This document shows positions 15,771 to 26,082 of a stretch of 64,000 nt of DNA, in pieces. The DNA is from Escherichia coli (GTDB taxonomy: Bacteria > Pseudomonadota > Gammaproteobacteria > Enterobacterales > Enterobacteriaceae). Location: NCBI RefSeq assembly GCF_050920415.1, contig NZ_CP169309.1; one strand, written 5' to 3'. The translations under genes were made by a program, and so were the position numbers. Under the pieces are notes generated by a model. It was not told where the DNA came from, did not search any database, and saw only the letters and a program-made list of their open reading frames with translations. Each line of letters starts with the position of its first letter. The first letter of the stretch is position 1.

Positions 15771-16019
15771 ATGGGCATTCTGTCATGGATTATTTTTGGG
15801 CTTATTGCCGGTATTCTGGCGAAGTGGATCATGCCAGGTAAAGATGGTGGTGGATTCTTTATGACTATCCTGCTGGGAATAGTCGGTGCCGTAGTCGGCG
15901 GATGGATCAGCACGCTGTTTGGCTTTGGTAAAGTCGATGGCTTCAATTTTGGCAGCTTCGTGGTTGCCGTTATTGGTGCGATTGTCGTGCTGTTTATCTA
16001 CAGAAAGATCAAAAGTTAA
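15771..16019 (+). CDS. yeaQ: GlsB/YeaQ/YmgE-family small membrane protein
   Basis: ORF track 82 aa; Gly-rich double TM sequence. Confidence 0.8.
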   Translation: MGILSWIIFGLIAGILAKWIMPGKDGGGFFMTILLGIVGAVVGGWISTLFGFGKVDGFNFGSFVVAVIGAIVVLFIYRKIKS

Positions 16020-16077
16020 CGCGTAAATTGCACAAAGGCTGCACACAGGCAGCCTTTGCTATTTTTTAGATGTGACG

Positions 16078-16152
16078 TTACCACCATCCCAACTCAGTGC
16101 CGAGAACGACAATAATCGCTACGCCCATCATAATAATCGTTGTTTTTTTCAT
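16078..16152 (-). CDS. yoaJ: Small membrane protein YoaJ (24 aa)
   Basis: Reverse-strand ORF MKKTTIIMMGVAIIVVLGTELGWW, preceded by GGAGCA SD-like sequence; not in ORF track (too short). Confidence 0.6.
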   Translation of the reverse strand: MKKTTIIMMGVAIIVVLGTELGWW

Positions 16153-16154
16153 CT

Positions 16155-16253
16155 TTATGCTCCCGGGGCAGCATAGCCGCCAATAAAAAACCATGCTAAA
16201 AATACGACCGCTGTAATAAAGATTACAACCGGAAAAATAATACCGATTCGCAT
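16155..16253 (-). CDS. yoaK: Small membrane protein YoaK (32 aa)
   Basis: Reverse-strand ORF MRIGIIFPVVIFITAVVFLAWFFIGGYAAPGA; stop 3 nt before yoaJ ATG. Confidence 0.6.
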   Translation of the reverse strand: MRIGIIFPVVIFITAVVFLAWFFIGGYAAPGA

Positions 16254-16285
16254 GTTATCACCAATCAAAAGGATGTGAATACGCC

Positions 16286-17311
16286 TCAGGAATGTAGCAC
16301 TGAATGCGCGACAAAAGGTGTTTTCTGTTTGTGTTTTTTCTCCTGATACATCGCGATATCGGCAGCATGCAGGGCGCTGTCTGCATCGGTCGTTTCAGGA
16401 TCGACTTCTACTATGCCAAGACTGGCACCAGGATAATACAAATCAACATCACCTAAGTGATATTCTCCGCGTATTTGCTGTTGAATACGTTCTCGCAGCG
16501 ATGGAATATCCGCATTCTCATTGTTCAGTGAAACAACCAAAAACTCATCACCGCCGAGACGACCAATAACTTCGCCATTTTGCTGGAGCGTATTAAGGCG
16601 CTCGCCAACCTGAATAAGAAACAGATCGCCACTATTATGACCAAAACGATCATTGATTAATTTGAAGTTATCCAGATCGATAAATGCGATCATTATCTTA
16701 TGGTTAAGATGCCGGGCGAGGGAAAACAGCGTCGTCAGATTTTCAAAAATCGCCCGCCGATTTGGTAACCCGGTTAACGAGTCGGTATACGATTGCGCAA
16801 TCAGCGCGGCATTGGCTTCGCGCAGCTGTTCTACCAGCGCCTCTTTTTGAATATATTGTGCAATCAGTCCGGCGAATAACTGCAAAACCTGTTCCGCGCG
16901 TTCACTCCACTGGCGCTTCTCACTGCTGGCGGCGCAAAGCGTGCCATAGAATGATCCATCCGGTAAGTGAATTGGCGTGCTCAGAAATGTGGTGATGCCA
17001 AGATTGCGTGCCGCAATACAGTCGCCCCAACGGTCGGGGACTTCATCGCTGAAAAAGCAGTTTTCATCAATGGCGCGTTTGCATAACGAGTAATCCCACG
17101 AGACGGTAAAATTCTCCGGGATGTGCATTTTCTGGCTGTTACGGGCAAACATTATATGCTGCAGGCGCGCTTCGACATCCACTTTGGTCAGGTAGGTTGA
17201 TTCCATATCAGTGACCATTTCCAGCATCTCCAGAAGCTGTCGGACCAGACTTTCCAGTGACTGTTCTTTGGCAAGGGATTGCGAGACGCGGGCGATAATC
17301 TGATCTGACAC
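16286..17311 (-). CDS. yeaP: Diguanylate cyclase with GAF domain (about 341 aa), probable GTG start
   Basis: ORF track 16286..17440; intact GGDEF motif (RLGGDEF); start trimmed by expected length. Confidence 0.8.
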   Translation of the reverse strand: MSDQIIARVSQSLAKEQSLESLVRQLLEMLEMVTDMESTYLTKVDVEARLQHIMFARNSQKMHIPENFTVSWDYSLCKRAIDENCFFSDEVPDRWGDCIAARNLGITTFLSTPIHLPDGSFYGTLCAASSEKRQWSERAEQVLQLFAGLIAQYIQKEALVEQLREANAALIAQSYTDSLTGLPNRRAIFENLTTLFSLARHLNHKIMIAFIDLDNFKLINDRFGHNSGDLFLIQVGERLNTLQQNGEVIGRLGGDEFLVVSLNNENADIPSLRERIQQQIRGEYHLGDVDLYYPGASLGIVEVDPETTDADSALHAADIAMYQEKKHKQKTPFVAHSVLHS

Positions 17312-17493
17312 GAAACAACTCCAGGATACGGCGGGTAAATGCTGATTATTTAATCTTTGCAGGCATGATAAAACATCATCAACAAAGATGAAACAAGGCG
17401 TAATATGATTTGAGTGAATGTAATAAAAATAGTGCTGCAAAACAAAACGATACCGCGATACTCTAAGCCTGGATAAATATGTGAGATCAATAA

Positions 17494-17748
17494 ATGAAAA
17501 TTATCAGTTTTGTTCTGCCTTGCTTGCTGGTCCTGGCTGGTTGTTCAACCCCTTCTCAGCCAGAAGCACCTAAACCGCCGCAGATTGGTATGGCAAATCC
17601 GGCGTCGGTCTATTGCCAGCAGAAGGGCGGGACGCTCATTCCTGTGCAGACAGCGCAAGGGGTCAGCAACAATTGCAAATTACCGGGCGGTGAAACGATT
17701 GATGAATGGGCATTGTGGCGACGGGACCATCCGGCTGGTGAAAAATAA
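17494..17748 (+). CDS. yoaF: DUF333 lipoprotein YoaF
   Basis: ORF track 84 aa; lipobox LAGC. Confidence 0.8.
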   Translation: MKIISFVLPCLLVLAGCSTPSQPEAPKPPQIGMANPASVYCQQKGGTLIPVQTAQGVSNNCKLPGGETIDEWALWRRDHPAGEK

Positions 17749-17769
17749 CCGCCGGATGCTGCACTAAAA

Positions 17770-18117
17770 TCACAAGCTACGTAGCCAGTCGGCCAGCACC
17801 AGCGCATGGTTCTGCGTGGTGTTTTTTGCTGAGTAGAGCAGGGTCAGCGGCTGTTTTTTGGCGATGTCTGCCAGCCGCTTTCCTTCTTGCTCGTGTTGCG
17901 TCAGTTCTGCAAGATATTGCTCGCGAAAGGTTGCAAAATCGACGACTTCGCCGTGAAAGGCTTTGCGCAGTTCCGTTGACGGCGTGATTTCTTTATCCCA
18001 CTCATCAAGGGCTAAATCGGTTTTTTTGATACCGCGTGGCCAGAGGCGGTCGACCAGTACGCGATAACCATCGCTCTGTTCAGCCGGATCATAAACGCGT
18101 TTGCACTGAATATTCAT
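17770..18117 (-). CDS. yeaO: DUF488 protein YeaO (about 115 aa)
   Basis: ORF track 17770..18138; start trimmed to MNIQCKRVYDP. Confidence 0.8.
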   Translation of the reverse strand: MNIQCKRVYDPAEQSDGYRVLVDRLWPRGIKKTDLALDEWDKEITPSTELRKAFHGEVVDFATFREQYLAELTQHEQEGKRLADIAKKQPLTLLYSAKNTTQNHALVLADWLRSL

Positions 18118-18171
18118 CGTATTTGTTCTCCCTTTCACGCATGATTTGTCACGTCACTATAGCACCGGATA

Positions 18172-19353
18172 TTAGCGAATTTCTTTGTCTCTCCCGGCGC
18201 AAAGTCCGAAAATCGCCATCAGTAGTGAAAGTATTGCAACACCCATCAGTGGTACGGACCAGTCACCGTTAGCATCGTGTATTTTACCCATCAGTGGCGG
18301 CCCACAGGCTGCCAGCAAATACCCGACGGATTGTGCCATCCCCGAGAGTGCCGCCGCCTGATGCGCAGAACTTGCCCGCAGACCAATGAACGTCAACCCC
18401 AGTATCATTGTTGCGCCGGAACCAAAACCGAAAAGCAGAGTCCAGGTGATCGCGTGTGCTGGCATAAAGCAGAGCCCAACCGCGCCCACTGCGCACATCA
18501 AGGCAACGAACGCTGCAATACCACGCTGATCTTTCACATGATGTAAGAAAAGTGGGATCAGCAAGCCGGGAGCTGCTGTGGCTAGTTGCAGCAAACCATG
18601 CAGTGAACCCGCCTGTGCTTCGCTATAGCCGTGACTGATGAGGATCGCCGGAAGCCAGCCAATAATCACGTAATAGACCAGTGAGTTGATCCCAAGAAAC
18701 AATGTCACCTGCCAGGCAAGCGGCGAACGCCAGATACCCCGAGTATGTAAGGCGCGTGAGGTACTCAAATTTGCATGTTGTTGACTTCGCCACTGTGGCA
18801 GCCATAAAAAAAGAGCCAGCAGAGGAAAACACATCAGCATGAGCAACGCGCCTTGCCAGCCAAAACCGTTCAAAGCCAGCGGCACTACCATAGCCGATCC
18901 CAGTGCCGCCGCAGCTCCCATTGTCAGGGAATATGCGCCGGTAAGTCTGGCGACGGAATGAGGGAAATCGCGTTTAATTAATCCTGGCAGTAAGACATTG
19001 CCTAATGCAATCCCACCGCCAATGACCGCTGTACCGCCAAATAATAAGTAAGGCGAAGGGAGAGAGCGAATTGCAATACCAGCACAGATCAAAAGTAACG
19101 CGGCAAACAGGCTACGTTCCATACCAAAACGTCGCGCCACCGGGGCGGCCAGCGGTGAGATTAGCGCAAAGGCTAATAATGGCAGGGTGGTCAATAAGCC
19201 GGTTTGCGCCGTCGTTAGCGAGTAAGCGGAACGAATCGTATCCAGTAACGGTGCTGCGCCGGTAAAGGTGACGCGTAATGTTGTGGCAATCATCAGAATG
19301 CCAGCGATAAGGACAATCCTGTTTTTACCGCTTAATGAAGTTGAACAGGTCAT
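18172..19353 (-). CDS. yeaN: MFS transporter YeaN (NimT, reported 2-nitroimidazole exporter)
   Basis: ORF track 393 aa; 12-TM MFS sequence; divergent AraC regulator. Confidence 0.85.
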   Translation of the reverse strand: MTCSTSLSGKNRIVLIAGILMIATTLRVTFTGAAPLLDTIRSAYSLTTAQTGLLTTLPLLAFALISPLAAPVARRFGMERSLFAALLLICAGIAIRSLPSPYLLFGGTAVIGGGIALGNVLLPGLIKRDFPHSVARLTGAYSLTMGAAAALGSAMVVPLALNGFGWQGALLMLMCFPLLALFLWLPQWRSQQHANLSTSRALHTRGIWRSPLAWQVTLFLGINSLVYYVIIGWLPAILISHGYSEAQAGSLHGLLQLATAAPGLLIPLFLHHVKDQRGIAAFVALMCAVGAVGLCFMPAHAITWTLLFGFGSGATMILGLTFIGLRASSAHQAAALSGMAQSVGYLLAACGPPLMGKIHDANGDWSVPLMGVAILSLLMAIFGLCAGRDKEIR

Positions 19354-19449
19354 ATGCTTCTCATTGTCACAAACGAGGCTGTACCTTACCGTTTTTATTG
19401 TTATGTTGAATCAAGCTAAAATGACAAAATATCGCTAAATTCTGACAAA

Positions 19450-20271
19450 ATGATGCACAGGTTGAATCTCAATGGCTATGAACCCGACCGACACCATGAA
19501 GCCGCGGTCGCATTTTGTATTCACGCCGGAACGGATGAGTTAACCAGTCCTGTACATCAGCACCGCAAAGGGCAGCTGATACTGGCGCTACATGGTGCAA
19601 TTACCTGTACGGTGGAAAATGCGTTGTGGATGGTGCCGCCGCAATATGCGGTTTGGATACCGGGAGGGGTGGAACATAGCAATCAAGTGACAGCTAACGC
19701 TGAACTCTGTTTTTTGTTTATAGAGCCCAGCGCAGTGACAATGCCGACAACATGTTGCACATTGAAAATATCGCCCTTATGCCGGGAATTAATTTTAACC
19801 CTGGCAAACAGGACGACGACTCAGCGTGCTGAGCCGATGACCCGCAGATTAATTCAGGTCCTGTTTGATGAACTCCCTCAGCAGCCACAACAACAGCTGC
19901 ACCTGCCCGTTTCTTCTCATCCTAAAATCCGCACGATGGTGGAGATGATGGCGAAAGAGCCCGTTGAGTGGGGCTCATTGGGGCAATGGGCTGGCTTTTT
20001 TGCGATGAGTGAACGCAATCTTGCCCGGCTGATAGTGAAAGAGACGGGGTTGAGTTTTCGCCAGTGGCGTCAGCAGTTACAGCTGATTATGGCGCTTCAG
20101 GGATTAGTGAAAGGCGATACTGTACAGAAAGTTGCTCATACGCTGGGGTATGATTCAACAACGGCCTTTATTACTATGTTTAAGAAAGGCCTGGGGCAAA
20201 CGCCAGGCCGATATATTGCGGGATTAACTACTGTTTCCCCACAATCAGCGAAACCAGACCCGCGGCAATAA
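19450..20271 (+). CDS. yeaM: AraC-family transcriptional regulator YeaM (NimR)
   Basis: ORF track 273 aa; cupin N-terminus plus AraC HTH C-terminus. Confidence 0.85.
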
Positions 20272-20674
20272 GCGGGCCAACCGGTACGCCGCGAAACAGC
20301 GCCACGCCCAAAACAGTGCCCACCAGCAGCCCGGCGACCAGTTGCGGCTGGCTGCCCATTAACGTCACGCCGCGCCCACCTAGCCAGGAGACAATAACGC
20401 CTACTGCAATTGCCACCAGCGATTTCCAGTTCAGAAACGAGTGAATCAGGGTTGAGGGCGGTAGCGTCCCGCTGGCGATGGGGGCCATAACGCCAATCGT
20501 CAGAATGATTATCCCGATACTTAGCCCCTGTTTTTCAATCCACGGGAAAAAGGTGCTTAACGGTGTGACGCGGACAATGATTAACACCAGAATTGAAACG
20601 GCCACAGTGGTGTTATGACTGATAAAGCCCAGCGCAGCTAACCCGAGCAGGATCAGCAAAGTGACATCAAACAT
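20228..20674 (-). CDS. yeaL: DUF441 inner-membrane protein YeaL
   Basis: ORF track 148 aa; all-TM sequence; 3' end overlaps yeaM 3' end. Confidence 0.8.
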
Positions 20675-20842
20675 CGTGGTTTCCTTGCCAAAAAATAATA
20701 AGCCTGCTTACTTTACGCTTGCTGCAGGAAGGAAGTAGAAAATCTTTACGTTTTTTGCATAAAAAATCAGGCGAACTGTCATCAAACTGCCATTTGTACA
20801 CGCTATCAATAACGTGAAAACAGTTATCTCCCGGGGCATACC

Positions 20843-20947
20843 ATGAACGATCAAATGTTCGTTGAGACACTGATTATCACGTCATCGTTTTTTGTTATTG
20901 CTGTTGTGCTGGTTTTGTCCGTTCTGCTTATTGAACGGACAGGCTAG
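20843..20947 (+). CDS. yoaI: Small membrane protein YoaI (34 aa)
   Basis: [37 protein letters not shown] read from sequence; not in ORF track. Confidence 0.6.
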
Positions 20948-21451
20948 TTACGCAGTGCGGCGGAAATTGACCAGTTCTGGTTGCGCAATGCGCAAATAAT
21001 CCGCAGTTTTCAAAATAACGGATTTATTCAGCATGCCTGCATTAAAGGCGATTTCATCGAATCGCTCGAAGAGCAATGGGTCGGCGACCAGTTTGAGTTT
21101 TGGATGGAAGCTGAAAGGGGGGATCGCGCCGAAGACACAGCCTGTGAGTTCATCGACTTCCGCCGGGCTGGCCAACGAAGCGCGTAATCCGCCTATATGG
21201 CTGGCGAGTTGGCTCAGATCGGCCTGTTGATCGGCCGCGAGGATCGCCAGAACATGTTGATTTACACCATTGCCTTTGACTTTACATACCAGTGCCTTAG
21301 CCCCCTGGCCTAAAGCGGTGCCACGAATTTCTGACACCGCTTCACATTTACCTACCGCTTCATGGGTAACGACGCGGAAGTCAGCACCTTCTTGTGATAA
21401 TAAAGCGATTAACCGCTGATGCGTCACGCTTCCTTTAGCCATTTCAGTCAT
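20948..21451 (-). CDS. yeaK: YbaK/ProX-like aminoacyl-tRNA deacylase YeaK
   Basis: ORF track 167 aa. Confidence 0.85.
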   Translation of the reverse strand: MTEMAKGSVTHQRLIALLSQEGADFRVVTHEAVGKCEAVSEIRGTALGQGAKALVCKVKGNGVNQHVLAILAADQQADLSQLASHIGGLRASLASPAEVDELTGCVFGAIPPFSFHPKLKLVADPLLFERFDEIAFNAGMLNKSVILKTADYLRIAQPELVNFRRTA

Positions 21452-21493
21452 TTCATGCTCCTGAGATTACAAGCAAACAACCACAGAAGGTTA

Positions 21494-22984
21494 TCATGAA
21501 CGGCTGTTTTTGTTCTGCTTATTGACATATAAACGCTCATCGGAAGCTTTATATGCATCATGTAACGTATCGTTTTCTTTCATCGCGTAAATACCGGAAG
21601 AGAAGCCGATCTCTTTCTGAGGCGCGATATGTTGCAGACGTTTTTCGATACGTTCAGGCAGTTGTGCTGCAATTTGCGGCGTCGAATCGACAAGAATGAT
21701 GCAGAATTCATCGCCACCGAGTCGGATGGCATAATCACTTTTACGAATCGACTGTTTAATCGCCTGAGCTAATAACGTAATCGCTAAATCCCCCTCCTGA
21801 TGACCGAGGGTGTCATTTATTTGCTTTAACTTGTCCATGTCAATTGCAATAAACATCACCGAAGAACCGGATTGCACCAGTTTCTGCAACCGCTGCTCCA
21901 GTTCAGGGGTTAAAATTTTGCGATTATACAGTCCAGTCATCGCATCACTAATATTTTCTCGCGACACGTTTTGGTATAAACGGAAGTGCATCCGGACCAT
22001 ATTCAGCAAAATTAACGCCGTCAAAATCCAGAACAGAACGCTTTTCCACGAAGACGTGATAAAGTAAAGAATATCAATGGATAACGAGACACGAATACCG
22101 CCCGGTAAGTCATGGACGTAACTGACATACTGGAACAGATTATCTTCGCTCTGGTTGATGATAATGTCGCGCCCTGAATCTGTATCAGTTAGCGTGACAT
22201 TGAGAAAACGCCAGAGGAGAGGGCGGTCATGAGTGTAAAAGATATTCCGCAGATTGTTTTTGTTAATATCCAGCAGCACAATCCCTTTTAGCTGCCCTGC
22301 GACATATACCGGCGTCAGCAAACTCATCACGTTCTGTTTAGTACGCTGATCCTGGTAAATGCTCGATAATACGGTACGCCCGGTAAATACCTTTTCAATA
22401 TCTTTGCGATCGATGCCAATACTTCCTGACTGCAGGAAGGACCAGTTATTCATCGCAAAGTACTCAACATTAACCGGCTCATAAAAATAGACATAGCGGT
22501 CATTGAGATCGAGATAATAGTGAAATTTCTCTTCGGCCATTCCAAGACCTGAACCGTAATCATCCTGGTGGCGGTTGCCTTCCACTGCCTGATCAAAAGC
22601 GGGTAATAGTGCTGCAGCTTCCACAATTGTGTCGCAGTCAGTGGATGCGGTTTGTAGTGTGCCGCGTAAGCCCGGGTATTTATGGGCAGTCAGGTTTAAG
22701 CCATGGGTATTATTGGCAGACTCAAAAGCCTCGCAGATGGCGCGCCGCTGTTCTGGCGACACTTCCGACTGCTCAGCAGCGAGAGCGCGCATCACATGCG
22801 CGGCAATACTCTGATTCTGATACTTATCATAAAGAAAGGAGGAATCTGCTCTCTGCACGATATAGCGCAGATAGGCACTCATTGCTCTGTCGCTGGCGAC
22901 AAGTTCAAAAATAAGGAAGGAAGATGTCAGCACAATGACACTTGCGGCGATAAAATGCCGGAGCATTCTATGGTGCAATTTCAT
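21494..22984 (-). CDS. yeaJ: Membrane-anchored diguanylate cyclase (about 496 aa)
   Basis: ORF track 21494..23164; intact GGDEF (RLGGDEF); start trimmed to MKLHHRMLRHF. Confidence 0.85.
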   Translation of the reverse strand: MKLHHRMLRHFIAASVIVLTSSFLIFELVASDRAMSAYLRYIVQRADSSFLYDKYQNQSIAAHVMRALAAEQSEVSPEQRRAICEAFESANNTHGLNLTAHKYPGLRGTLQTASTDCDTIVEAAALLPAFDQAVEGNRHQDDYGSGLGMAEEKFHYYLDLNDRYVYFYEPVNVEYFAMNNWSFLQSGSIGIDRKDIEKVFTGRTVLSSIYQDQRTKQNVMSLLTPVYVAGQLKGIVLLDINKNNLRNIFYTHDRPLLWRFLNVTLTDTDSGRDIIINQSEDNLFQYVSYVHDLPGGIRVSLSIDILYFITSSWKSVLFWILTALILLNMVRMHFRLYQNVSRENISDAMTGLYNRKILTPELEQRLQKLVQSGSSVMFIAIDMDKLKQINDTLGHQEGDLAITLLAQAIKQSIRKSDYAIRLGGDEFCIILVDSTPQIAAQLPERIEKRLQHIAPQKEIGFSSGIYAMKENDTLHDAYKASDERLYVNKQNKNSRS

Positions 22985-23164
22985 GATAAATGGCACTCCT
23001 TCGGTTAGTGAAACGAGAAAACCAGATAAAGTTCGATTGCGGCCTGGCACAGGGGCGCTAATTATACTCATCTCTGCGCCGCTGGGGAGGGGAAATTTAG
23101 GGGTAATAGTAATAAATTGTATGCAAAAGCCACGCAAAAAGCATGGCTCTGAATATTTTTGCAC

Positions 23165-24640
23165 TTAAATATGATGAATAATCACTTTGTTGCCCCCCTC
23201 GCTTTTCGCTTCGCGTAAGGCTTTATCTGCTTCCGTCATGACAAGCGAGATATTACGCGTGTCACCCGTTGAAAAAACCGTGCCAATACTGATGGTCATT
23301 TGTTCAGGAACATCATATCTGTTACTAAAACCGGTCAGGAGTTCGACATTTTTACGCATACGTTCCGCAATGATTTTTGCCTGGGCACTATTGAGTTCGG
23401 TAAATAGCAAGCCAAACACCTCACCCTCCAGTCGCGCTAAAATATCATCGGGGCGGATGCTTTGCTGGATAATATCGACAATTGAAACCAGCACTTTATC
23501 ACCCACACGATGTCCCCATTGGGCATTGATGCGCTTGAACTGATTAATATCAACCAGCATGACACAAAAGTCCTTAACAACAGGTCGCGACAATAATGAC
23601 TCTACGCTGTTGAAAAAGTAGCGCCGATTATAAATATTGGTCAGTACATCATGAACTGCCAGTTTGCTGGAGAGTTGCAGTTCCTGAAAAATGTTATAAA
23701 TCAGAAAAGACACAACAAACAGTTTACTGGAAACTTCAATCCCGCGACTGATATACCAGATGGTGTAATTATACTCATCCAGAGTCAGTAGAAGTAAGTT
23801 GCAGCATAGCGATGCCAGACATAATAATGCTATTAACGGCCATAGTTCGCTGGCTAATCGTGTACGCATGATAATAAAGAACAGTAAAAATGCCCACAGA
23901 CAAACCAATATTTTTGTATAGTTGATTCCCCAGGTCGCAGTATGGTTGTCCGGACAGTAATCGACGACATACAAAGAATAGTCAGCGTTATAACTGCTCA
24001 GATTGTGTGCCAGAAGGGGAAAAAATAAAAAAGGAATCAGCGCCAGCAACAGAATGCCAGTTTTTTTCTTATTGTTGTCAAGGATGTTGTCTTTCCCATA
24101 ACAAAAGAGCGCCAGCGAGGTTAAACAAATGAAACTGAGTTGGCGGAAAATATAGAAAATAGAAACATCATTCGACTTTGTCTGGATCAGTGTACTGCCG
24201 TTGATTGGTTTATGGATAATTACAATGGTTTCAACTAAATAGATAAGGCCACTTAAAAATGCAAGGCTTAAAATGAGTGTTGGTAAAATTTGTTTGTTAG
24301 TGAAATACTTCATTAACATGAAAAGAAAAATGACGGCGTTAAGGAAAAACAAAGCCACAACAACCATCAGGTAATTCATCTGTGGGATGAGTTTTACATT
24401 CGTGTTTTCGTTATATAAGGTAGTAATGCAAAATAAAATTAACGTCAGCAATAAGCTGAAAATAAAAAAGCCTTGAGCTTTTAATTTTTGTGTACCCATA
24501 GAAGCCATAAAAAGGAGAGCAATGTGAGTGCTGGATTTTATTGATGGCAGAGATATATGGTTTTGACCAGGATCAATTTTCGTTGACGATAAAAAATAAT
24601 TAAAGAATAACCCCAGGGAAATACGTGTTGACCGAATCAT
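23165..24640 (-). CDS. yeaI: Multi-TM degenerate GGDEF-domain protein (motif EGEVF), likely catalytically inactive c-di-GMP effector
   Basis: ORF track 491 aa; GGDEF position reads RLEGEVFGLLF. Confidence 0.85.
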   Translation of the reverse strand: MIRSTRISLGLFFNYFLSSTKIDPGQNHISLPSIKSSTHIALLFMASMGTQKLKAQGFFIFSLLLTLILFCITTLYNENTNVKLIPQMNYLMVVVALFFLNAVIFLFMLMKYFTNKQILPTLILSLAFLSGLIYLVETIVIIHKPINGSTLIQTKSNDVSIFYIFRQLSFICLTSLALFCYGKDNILDNNKKKTGILLLALIPFLFFPLLAHNLSSYNADYSLYVVDYCPDNHTATWGINYTKILVCLWAFLLFFIIMRTRLASELWPLIALLCLASLCCNLLLLTLDEYNYTIWYISRGIEVSSKLFVVSFLIYNIFQELQLSSKLAVHDVLTNIYNRRYFFNSVESLLSRPVVKDFCVMLVDINQFKRINAQWGHRVGDKVLVSIVDIIQQSIRPDDILARLEGEVFGLLFTELNSAQAKIIAERMRKNVELLTGFSNRYDVPEQMTISIGTVFSTGDTRNISLVMTEADKALREAKSEGGNKVIIHHI

Positions 24641-24748
24641 TTTTCCGAATGATTGTTTTCTGAAACTAAATTGTGTAAAGGTTATGCTGTCATATTTAAA
24701 GCGATTGTAAGCTAATGTATGTAATAAATGAGATAATTTACAGTGAGC

Positions 24749-24781
24749 TAAAAATCAGCCAGGCGATAATGACCCGGCTGA
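24749..24781 (-). terminator. Rho-independent terminator downstream of yeaH
   Basis: GC-rich hairpin CAGCCGGGTCATTATCGCCTGGCTG followed by U-run on minus strand, immediately after yeaH stop. Confidence 0.65.
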
Positions 24782-24786
24782 CAGTT

Positions 24787-26082
<1,296 letters not shown>

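Follow-up and report, generated by a model that had tools for sequence, protein, structure and literature searches.

CdgI as a probable non-catalytic c-di-GMP receptor among three neighbouring GGDEF genes of Escherichia coli

Background

Three genes within 8.4 kb of an Escherichia coli chromosome encode proteins with a GGDEF domain: two of them keep the motif GGDEF at the active site, and the third reads EGEVF. The locus raises a double question: do these neighbours share an origin or a task, and what would be the role of the protein whose active site is degenerate? We address it within a stretch of 64,000 nucleotides, here called the window, and by comparison with other E. coli genomes, with E. 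albertii and with two Citrobacter-like contigs.

Results

Three GGDEF genes of the core chromosome

The coordinates and names of the genes come from RefSeq, as annotated on a genome of 100% identity, and Table 1 collects them together with the features discussed below. All three genes lie on the minus strand within positions 16286 to 24640 and carry the GGDEF domain of Pfam (PF00990; E-values 1e-40, 3e-40 and 9e-45), with scores of 139.6 bits for DgcP, 137.9 for DgcJ and 152.7 for CdgI against a cut-off of 23.8, each over about 160 of the 161 profile positions. An earlier note on this DNA had announced three GGDEF proteins in 8.4 kb, one with a degenerate site; the domain search, the annotation and the motifs themselves (GGDEF, GGDEF and EGEVF) agree with it. 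Besides this set, the 64-kb window has no open reading frame of at least 150 amino acids that bears GG[DE]EF.

Table 1. Genes, motifs and signals of the three-gene region
Feature	Position	Strand	Basis or remark
dgcP (yeaP), cytoplasmic GAF-GGDEF diguanylate cyclase, 341 aa, GTG start	16286..17311	-	RefSeq, Pfam
DgcP A-site GGDEF, residues 253-257	16541..16555	-	sequence motif
dgcJ (yeaJ), TM - GAPES1 periplasmic sensor - TM - GGDEF diguanylate cyclase, 496 aa	21494..22984	-	RefSeq, Pfam, NCBIfam
DgcJ A-site GGDEF, residues 423-427	21704..21718	-	sequence motif
DgcJ I-site RKSD, residues 414-417, 5 residues before GGDEF	21734..21745	-	sequence motif
Shine-Dalgarno AAGGAG of dgcJ	22996..23001	-	11 nt before ATG 22984; invariant in four taxa
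Perfect TATAAT, candidate -10 box of a promoter of dgcJ's own	23061..23066	-	conserved block ATGaGTATAATT.GC
8-bp hairpin followed by UUUU	23128..23148	-	17 nt after cdgI stop; conserved pairing
cdgI (yeaI) as annotated, 491 aa, MASE4 8-TM + degenerate GGDEF	23165..24640	-	RefSeq, Pfam, AlphaFold2
CdgI degenerate A-site EGEVF, residues 405-409	23414..23428	-	sequence motif
CdgI I-site RPDD, residues 396-399, 5 residues before the A-site	23444..23455	-	sequence motif
Terminator-like hairpin with T-run	24754..24782	-	just 3' of yeaH, separates yeaGH from cdgI; consensus scan only

The 9-kb region has matches in 5424 of 5426 complete E. coli genomes: the window is core chromosome. E. coli K-12 has the same gene set, in the same order and with the same spacing (CdgI/YeaI, b1785; DgcJ/YeaJ, b1786; DgcP/YeaP, b1794), and the proteins show allelic differences only, with identities of 99.3% for CdgI over a core of 447 amino acids, 99.8% for DgcJ and 98.8% for DgcP. 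E. albertii and the two Citrobacter-like contigs share the order mipA-yeaG-yeaH-[MASE4-GGDEF]-[GAPES1-GGDEF]-yeaK-yeaL.

The proximity of the three genes is a mild signal, and one read after the fact: simulations that scatter 19 GGDEF genes randomly over 4.64 Mb bring three of them together in 8.4 kb in about 0.9% of cases.

DgcP and DgcJ

The longest open reading frame of dgcP reaches 17440, upstream of the annotated start. Its product has a GAF_2 domain at residues 17-155, a GGDEF domain at residues 175-330, and no hydrophobic segment in its hydropathy profile. Upstream of the A-site the protein reads QQNGEVIGRL-GGDEF, with QNGE in place of RxxD, so that the I-site is absent. To judge from these motifs, DgcP reads as an ordinary diguanylate cyclase whose A-site is intact and which lacks an I-site.

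DgcJ combines its GGDEF domain with the periplasmic sensor GAPES1 (E-value 7e-151), flanked by membrane segments that hydropathy places near residues 10-32 and 308-334. It scores 747 bits on the equivalog model NF040885 of NCBIfam (cut-off 500), over positions 1-492 of 493; CdgI and DgcP reach 66 and 83 bits, on the GGDEF part only, and neither is a member. With both its A-site and its I-site intact, DgcJ also reads as an ordinary cyclase as far as motifs can tell. The domains and motifs of both proteins are those given in the earlier note, which had described yeaP as a GAF-GGDEF protein and yeaJ as a membrane sensor joined to GGDEF.

The degenerate domain of CdgI

The N-terminal part of CdgI is a MASE4 domain (PF17158, 164.8 bits against a cut-off of 28.4). 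Hydropathy gives seven strong segments, and the AlphaFold2 model (pLDDT 83) places eight membrane helices before the GGDEF domain, in line with the eight or so announced for YeaI. The GGDEF fold is confident in this model and matches, in a fold search, solved GGDEF domains with bound c-di-GMP; beyond GGDEF domains, the search with the full model returns only a weak whole-length match to the membrane cyclase ImcA (8wcn; TM 0.33-0.38, rmsd 13.8), which is uninformative on MASE4.

The annotated start of cdgI is probably 44 to 47 codons too long, the conserved coding part beginning at M45 (24508) or M48 (24499). Five of the eight amino-acid changes between the CdgI of the window and that of K-12 fall in these doubtful 44 N-terminal codons.

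At the active-site position the protein does read EGEVF, as had been noted, and other catalytic signatures are altered with respect to active MASE4 cyclases: in the alignment DxD becomes DIN, and IND becomes INA. Annotation of the RxxD I-site, proposed as a check, finds it in CdgI and in DgcJ and shows its absence from DgcP. A further change, GRN to GGN near the C-terminus, is common to the whole CdgI clade; we considered it as proof of inactivity and dropped it, for DgcJ and DgcP, regarded as active, likewise have no GRN.

The same alignment to active homologues shows which substrate-site residues are kept in CdgI: the first Asp of DxD, the Asn of IND, the Asp of GD and the Glu at the third position of the motif. 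Given these residues, GTP binding, or some residual activity within a heterodimer, is conceivable.

Among orthologues of at least 64% identity, which form the CdgI clade, the A-site reads EGEVF, DGEVF, EGEEF, EGDVF, EGNVF or EGKRF, and thus drifts at positions 1, 3 and 4, while all 19 MASE4-GGDEF homologues compared have the R and D of RxxD. Residues R352 and D355 of this motif, together with R385 (numbered on the 447-residue form that starts at M45), do not vary in the orthologue series. All the more distant MASE4-GGDEF homologues read GGEEF.

Purifying selection acts on the degenerate domain. For CdgI, comparison within E. coli gives a dN/dS of 0.046, and comparison of E. coli with E. albertii one of 0.077-0.078, the transmembrane and GGDEF parts being alike; for the GGDEF domains in the latter comparison, the ratio is 0.077 in CdgI and 0.024 in DgcJ. 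Against the Citrobacter-like orthologues, dN is higher in the GGDEF domain of CdgI (0.34-0.36) than in its transmembrane domain (0.23-0.27), and the pattern is reversed in DgcJ.

The spacer between cdgI and dgcJ

The two genes had been described as lying 1 nt apart. The annotated ATG of dgcJ sits 180 nt past the cdgI stop; the shorter distance arose because the mechanically longest open reading frame, which begins at a GTG directly behind the TAA of cdgI, was taken as dgcJ. Comparison favours the annotated start: the ATG, the Shine-Dalgarno sequence and the first codons of dgcJ recur unchanged in E. albertii and the two Citrobacter-like genomes, in which the 60-codon extension is closed by stops or out of frame. 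The spacer, identical in the window and K-12, is open there and in phase with both genes; that of E. albertii is 179 nt long and contains stops. Translational coupling, or a read-through fusion of the two genes, is therefore ruled out as a conserved feature.

Two further elements of the spacer are conserved. In the hairpin behind cdgI, 100% of the cells of the four-taxon alignment are paired, against 20-48% in slid controls, and three pairs have changed on both sides; its minimum free energy is -19.4 kcal/mol (z -3.6). It is probably a terminator of cdgI or a stabiliser of its 3' end. The columns of the TATAAT are invariant in the same alignment. A two-hexamer promoter scan does not pick up this TATAAT and finds 7 matches in the region, against 8.8 in shuffles; statements about promoters therefore rest on conservation across species. 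From the conserved hairpin, TATAAT and Shine-Dalgarno sequence, we infer that cdgI and dgcJ would be separate transcription units.

Origin of CdgI

The earlier note also saw in yeaI and yeaJ a diverged tandem duplicate, and several observations agree with such an origin, possibly with translational coupling: the genes are neighbours on one strand and encode products of much the same size (491 and 496 amino acids), their adjacency is kept out to the Citrobacter-like genomes, both proteins have an I-site in similar contexts (SIRPDD in CdgI, SIRKSD in DgcJ), and in E. coli the spacer is open in phase with both. However, an open spacer of 60 codons has a chance of about 5%, and the open phase is absent from E. 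albertii and the Citrobacter-like loci. The alignment of the two N-terminal sensor domains, suggested as the check, compares eight membrane helices of MASE4 with the periplasmic GAPES1, two distinct Pfam families, and BLASTP yields nothing better than E = 2. The GGDEF domains are equidistant (28% identity between CdgI and DgcJ, 27% between CdgI and DgcP, 28% between DgcJ and DgcP), and the similarity of CdgI to the other two is confined to this domain; on the DgcJ equivalog model CdgI scores low. The idea of a duplication fails because the N-terminal domains are unrelated, which the earlier note had itself named as grounds for abandoning it; we give it hardly any credence.

The relatives of CdgI are found elsewhere. 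CdgI and DgcT/YcdT of K-12 align over their full length (37% identity over 445 amino acids, E-value 2e-99, BLASTP), and CdgI has been placed in a MASE4 family with DgcT and DgcX (PMC10459773). These two MASE4-GGDEF diguanylate cyclases of E. coli have the architecture of CdgI and an RxxD I-site, and the MASE4 motifs AFLS, ND..I.Y.FRQLSF, HNLSSYN and WYISR are invariant across the family. On these alignments, CdgI is a paralogue of DgcT and DgcX, not of DgcJ. DgcT keeps GGEEF, DID and IND, where CdgI has EGEVF, DIN and INA; it adjoins the pga operon, whereas CdgI lies between yeaH and dgcJ.

In the two Citrobacter-like contigs, this same slot between yeaH and dgcJ holds a positional orthologue of CdgI that keeps GGEEF. 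Most probably, CdgI arose in situ: its A-site would have been lost in the Escherichia lineage and have drifted since, with the remainder of the domain under purifying selection.

Discussion

The reading that we hold with considerable confidence is that of three independent genes, in which CdgI is a non-catalytic MASE4 receptor, paralogous to DgcT and DgcX, whose A-site was lost in place. CdgI has lost the catalytic signature (it now reads EGEVF, DIN and INA) and kept the RxxD I-site and the GGDEF fold; it would therefore be a membrane-anchored c-di-GMP receptor and not a synthase. In this it would resemble PopA of Caulobacter and PelD of P. aeruginosa, I-site receptors of c-di-GMP with a GGDEF fold in which the A-site is destroyed but RxxD is kept; they are presumably related to CdgI in the GGDEF domain only. 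Their outputs are different, and so are their N-terminal modules: PopA has receiver domains, and PelD a TM-GAF module within the Pel machinery.

That YeaI binds c-di-GMP rather than making it was proposed in the earlier note and is already published: in Sarenko et al. 2017 (PMC5635695), the purified GGDEF domain (His6-GGDEF) binds c-di-GMP (Fig. S4), and the product name in the K-12 RefSeq annotation reflects this binding. The EGEVF and RPDD motifs and the invariant RxxD point the same way. The same paper reports an intact I-site in CdgI and heteromeric contacts, described as strong, of its GGDEF domain with several others; it also describes CdgI as repressed by CsrA and toxic on overexpression. 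The step downstream of binding could thus be a modulation of other GGDEF enzymes through such contacts, dependent on c-di-GMP or on a signal sensed by MASE4. CsrD, a GGDEF-EAL protein of E. coli, is likewise a membrane protein with a degenerate GGDEF domain and heteromeric GGDEF contacts (PMC5635695); it is reported as enzymatically inactive and acting on the RNAs CsrB and CsrC (PMC5635695, PMC3484386). CdgI scores 52 bits on the NCBIfam model of CsrD, against a cut-off of 663.

Two other accounts of CdgI have to be weighed: that it is still an active cyclase, whose phenotypes come from c-di-GMP synthesis, or that it is a silent, functionless relic on its way to becoming a pseudogene. For the first, Spurbeck et al. 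2012 (PMC3484386) refer to Sanchez-Torres 2011 when they list YeaI among proteins with "verified diguanylate cyclase activity"; the biofilm defect of a yeaI mutant of CFT073 is complemented by the heterologous cyclase WspR in no-salt LB (PMC3484386); the substrate-site residues listed above are kept, and one orthologue reads EGEEF. However, WspR does not complement in glycerol minimal medium (PMC3484386), and complementation by a foreign cyclase is equally consistent with a receptor of c-di-GMP. CdgI has substitutions at the first Gly and at the fourth position of GG(D/E)EF, close orthologues show five variants of the motif, which is unexpected for a catalytic loop, and two later papers treat CdgI as catalytically inactive (PMC5635695, PMC10459773). 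We consider continued activity quite improbable. For the relic account, CdgI is reported as undetectable in K-12 under standard laboratory conditions (PMC5635695). Among database sequences, truncated alleles devoid of the GGDEF domain make up clusters of some size (639 members in P0013, 249 in P0019 and 934 in P0025, the full-length cluster having 10877), and deletions that fuse cdgI to dgcJ or yeaL are seen. But dN/dS is low in both parts of the protein, 5408 of the 5426 complete genomes have a match that covers at least 80% of cdgI, the I-site residues are invariant, and the literature reports deletion phenotypes (PMC3484386) and activation of cdgI by SrsR in stationary phase (PMC9181523); a mere relic seems to us very improbable indeed. 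Given the low detectability and the truncated clusters, the importance of CdgI may be conditional.

There is also the possibility that the cluster forms a functional c-di-GMP island, in which CdgI regulates its neighbour DgcJ. The simulated placements, the adjacency of cdgI and dgcJ conserved across genera, the presence of all three genes within 6.2 kb in E. albertii and the GGDEF contacts of CdgI speak for it. Against it, the intervening genes (yeaK, yoaI, yeaL, nimR, nimT, yeaO and yoaF) are unrelated and of mixed orientations, the clustering was assessed post hoc, and control differs, DgcP being described as vegetative and abundant, and CdgI as CsrA-repressed and undetectable (PMC5635695). 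We regard such an island as improbable. A less remote but still speculative reading, which we would not favour, makes CdgI an "anti-cyclase", gated by its signal and by c-di-GMP, that captures the GGDEF domains of active cyclases, possibly that of DgcJ, in unproductive heterodimers; catalysis would have been lost in situ in the Escherichia ancestor and the domain then retooled, a notion suggested by accelerated change followed by purifying selection. Under the preferred reading, the region would consist of three independent, separately transcribed core-genome genes of c-di-GMP signalling, each joining GGDEF to a different sensor domain.

The three genes, the degenerate EGEVF, the intact I-site and the binding of c-di-GMP are all published and present in the reference annotation. 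The present work corrects the 1-nt spacing and the tandem duplication of the first reading, and flags what is probably an over-extended cdgI start in a widely used annotation. It also brings new comparative support, in the drift of the A-site against an invariant I-site, the syntenic GGEEF orthologues and the low dN/dS: taken together, these indicate that CdgI descends, at its present locus, from an active MASE4 cyclase and has been maintained as a receptor without catalytic function.

The locus of the three GGDEF genes

Of 5426 complete E. coli genomes, 5424 match the 9 kb around the three GGDEF genes. The locus is ordinary, and already known. Strain MFDS1022581 is 100% identical here, and its RefSeq annotation can be carried over as it stands: adding 14499 to a locus coordinate gives the window coordinate. 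Between dgcP (yeaP), dgcJ (yeaJ) and cdgI (yeaI) lie yoaF, yeaO, nimT, nimR, yeaL, yoaI and yeaK. When 19 GGDEF genes are placed at random, about 0.9% of simulations put three of them within 8.4 kb, a mild and post hoc signal of clustering.

Features of the locus, in window coordinates
Feature	Position	Strand	Basis or context
dgcP (yeaP)	16286-17311	-	RefSeq annotation of identical genome
dgcJ (yeaJ)	21494-22984	-	RefSeq annotation of identical genome
cdgI (yeaI)	23165-24640	-	RefSeq annotation of identical genome
Annotated cdgI codons 1-44	24509-24640	-	Window versus K-12 differences, orthologue starts
8-bp hairpin, then UUUU	23128-23148	-	17 nt past cdgI stop
Perfect TATAAT	23061-23066	-	Conserved block upstream of dgcJ, Escherichia and Citrobacter-like genomes
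AAGGAG	22996-23001	-	Invariant, upstream of dgcJ ATG
cdgI-dgcJ spacer	22985-23164	-	60 open codons in E. coli

Across window positions 16000-25000, identity reaches at least 99% with only 2 of the 5424 genomes, most being at 95-99%, whereas cdgI alone is at least 99% identical in 1138; the combination of alleles in this strain is thus uncommon, possibly a recombination mosaic. In E. albertii (locus L004, 8834-9725, against window 18172-20271), nimR-nimT is absent between yeaL and yeaO, and the three GGDEF genes are thus within about 6.2 kb.

Domains, motifs and topology

Pfam assigns a full-length GGDEF domain to each protein, and a different sensor to each: GAF in DgcP, a periplasmic GAPES1 flanked by two transmembrane segments in DgcJ, and MASE4 in CdgI. 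The catalytic motifs (A-site) read as first noted: DgcP and DgcJ carry GGDEF, CdgI carries EGEVF. The allosteric c-di-GMP site RxxD (I-site) stands exactly five residues upstream of this motif in CdgI (RPDD) and DgcJ (RKSD); at that distance ahead of GGDEF, DgcP has none.

Hydropathy yields seven strong segments in CdgI; the AlphaFold2 model (19 homologues as input, pLDDT 83) has a confident GGDEF fold and eight membrane helices, in agreement with the initial estimate of about eight, and a short β-hairpin loop joins helices 5 and 6. The motif HNLSSYN, invariant in the MASE4 family, lies at the end of TM5, with the predicted loop after it (residues 165-195 of the 447-aa form counted from M45, window about 23920-24020, model m7ded61f78125). 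This loop is a candidate signal-sensing element. Past the GGDEF domain of CdgI a single solved structure aligns, that of the membrane cyclase ImcA (8wcn), and it does so weakly.

CdgI and DgcJ are not tandem duplicates

The earlier note was largely correct, the spacing of yeaI and yeaJ excepted, but its reading of the pair as a diverged tandem duplicate is refuted: the N-terminal halves are unrelated, and CdgI is closer to DgcT. With BLASTP, CdgI and DgcJ align in their GGDEF domains alone (28% over 153 aa), the N-terminal halves giving no alignment better than E = 2, and the GGDEF similarity is just as high for CdgI-DgcP (27%) and DgcJ-DgcP (28%). By comparison, K-12 DgcT (YcdT) matches CdgI from M48 to the C-terminal end, at 37% over 445 aa (E 2e-99), and this match along the length of CdgI, set against 28% in the GGDEF domain only, rules the duplication out. 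The NCBIfam DgcJ equivalog model, with a cut-off of 500 bits, scores DgcJ at 747 bits and CdgI at 66. CdgI has been grouped with DgcT and DgcX in the MASE4 family (PMC5635695; PMC10459773).

Spacing, transcription units and the start of cdgI

The two genes were said to be 1 nt apart; the annotated ATG of dgcJ, at 22984, is in fact 180 nt past the TAA of cdgI. An ORF lister opens the dgcJ frame at a GTG immediately behind that TAA. However, E. albertii and two Citrobacter-like genomes share the dgcJ ATG, the AAGGAG 11 nt 5' of it and the first codons without any change, whereas the 60 codons upstream are broken by stops or out of phase there. In E. coli, these codons are in phase with both genes, a lone TAA separating the frames, and the spacer is identical in the window and K-12. 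In E. albertii it measures 179 nt and contains stops; since the open phase is kept neither there nor in the Citrobacter-like loci, it is probably due to chance (about 5%).

Several features point to separate transcription of yeaGH, cdgI and dgcJ. Downstream of yeaH lies a terminator-like hairpin. The hairpin behind cdgI, probably its terminator, pairs completely in each of the four taxa, and three of its base pairs have changed in both partners (compensatory); slid controls pair at 20-48%, and its MFE is -19.4 kcal/mol (z = -3.6). The conserved sequences ahead of dgcJ suggest a promoter and ribosome binding site of its own; we infer the promoter function from conservation, and a consensus promoter scan of the region gave matches no more numerous than in shuffles.

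The annotated cdgI, at 491 aa, is probably 44-47 codons too long, the stretch being then part of the 5'-UTR. Its first 44 codons look non-coding: they differ from K-12 by 0 synonymous and 5 non-synonymous changes, versus 18 and 3 in the remaining codons (Fisher p = 0.00085). The annotated start of orthologues falls at the position of M45 (447 aa), or their alignment begins at M48, as it does for DgcT, and in E. albertii a stop codon lies in frame 11 codons upstream. No clear Shine-Dalgarno sequence precedes M45 or M48.

Loss of the catalytic site in place

A database search followed by alignment gave an orthologue series, with more distant homologues, of 19 sequences in all. In the clade at least 64% identical to the window CdgI, the A-site reads EGEVF, DGEVF, EGEEF, EGDVF, EGNVF or EGKRF, and the DxD and IND signatures have decayed too in the Escherichia proteins; all the more distant MASE4-GGDEF proteins, DgcT included, have GGEEF. 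In 19/19 sequences the arginine and aspartate of RxxD are invariant, as is a further arginine in the ER.R helix, known as the secondary I-site arginine in PleD. The proteins P0020 and P0023 (58-62% identity) carry GGEEF and occupy the same slot, mipA-yeaG-yeaH-[MASE4-GGDEF]-[GAPES1-GGDEF]-yeaK-yeaL-nimR-nimT. By this gene order they are positional orthologues of CdgI, and the Escherichia lineage thus lost its A-site in situ.

Receptor, enzyme or dead gene

Spurbeck et al. 2012 (PMC3484386) assert at second hand that CdgI keeps residual cyclase activity; in their work WspR complemented a biofilm defect of yeaI in one medium and failed to do so in a second. A receptor would account just as well for complementation by extra c-di-GMP, and the variation of the catalytic loop between close CdgI orthologues argues against an enzyme.

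The possibility of a dead gene has some support in truncated alleles without a GGDEF domain, P0013 (345 aa), P0019 (295 aa) and P0025 (281 aa), in the deletion hybrids P0026, P0035 and P0017, and in a laboratory ΔcdgI-dgcJ' deletion on record. However, cdgI is found in 5408 of 5426 genomes and its dN/dS is low. Against E. albertii, dN/dS is 0.077 for the GGDEF domain of CdgI and 0.024 for that of DgcJ, and the CdgI domain has zero amino-acid changes relative to K-12: by these measures, the degenerate domain is not decaying.

The truncated clusters hold 639 (P0013), 249 (P0019) and 934 (P0025) member sequences, compared with 10877 for the full-length one, and suggest recurrent loss of cdgI in some E. 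coli lineages. The hybrids, which occur once each and fuse the CdgI N-terminus to DgcJ or YeaL, imply deletions across the locus in some isolates. The laboratory strain with the cdgI-dgcJ' deletion is a published one, and K-12 BW30270 has an IS1 in dgcJ (PMC8117528).

The remaining reading, that CdgI binds c-di-GMP and is not a cyclase, was correctly proposed, and had already been published: its A-site is degenerate and its I-site intact (Sarenko et al. 2017, PMC5635695). According to the same study, the purified GGDEF domain binds c-di-GMP, and CdgI engages several further GGDEF domains in strong heteromeric contacts; the protein is undetectable under standard conditions, repressed by CsrA, and toxic when overexpressed. 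SrsR activates cdgI in stationary phase (PMC9181523).

Compared with Citrobacter-like orthologues, dN is higher in the GGDEF domain of CdgI (0.34-0.36) than in its own membrane domain (0.23-0.27), and DgcJ has the reverse pattern; the faster divergence fits a change of function along that branch. In the most likely mechanism, CdgI is a catalytically dead GGDEF domain on an eight-helix MASE4 sensor, binding c-di-GMP at the I-site, as the literature has shown, and this binding, or a signal received by MASE4, may alter its contacts with other GGDEF proteins.
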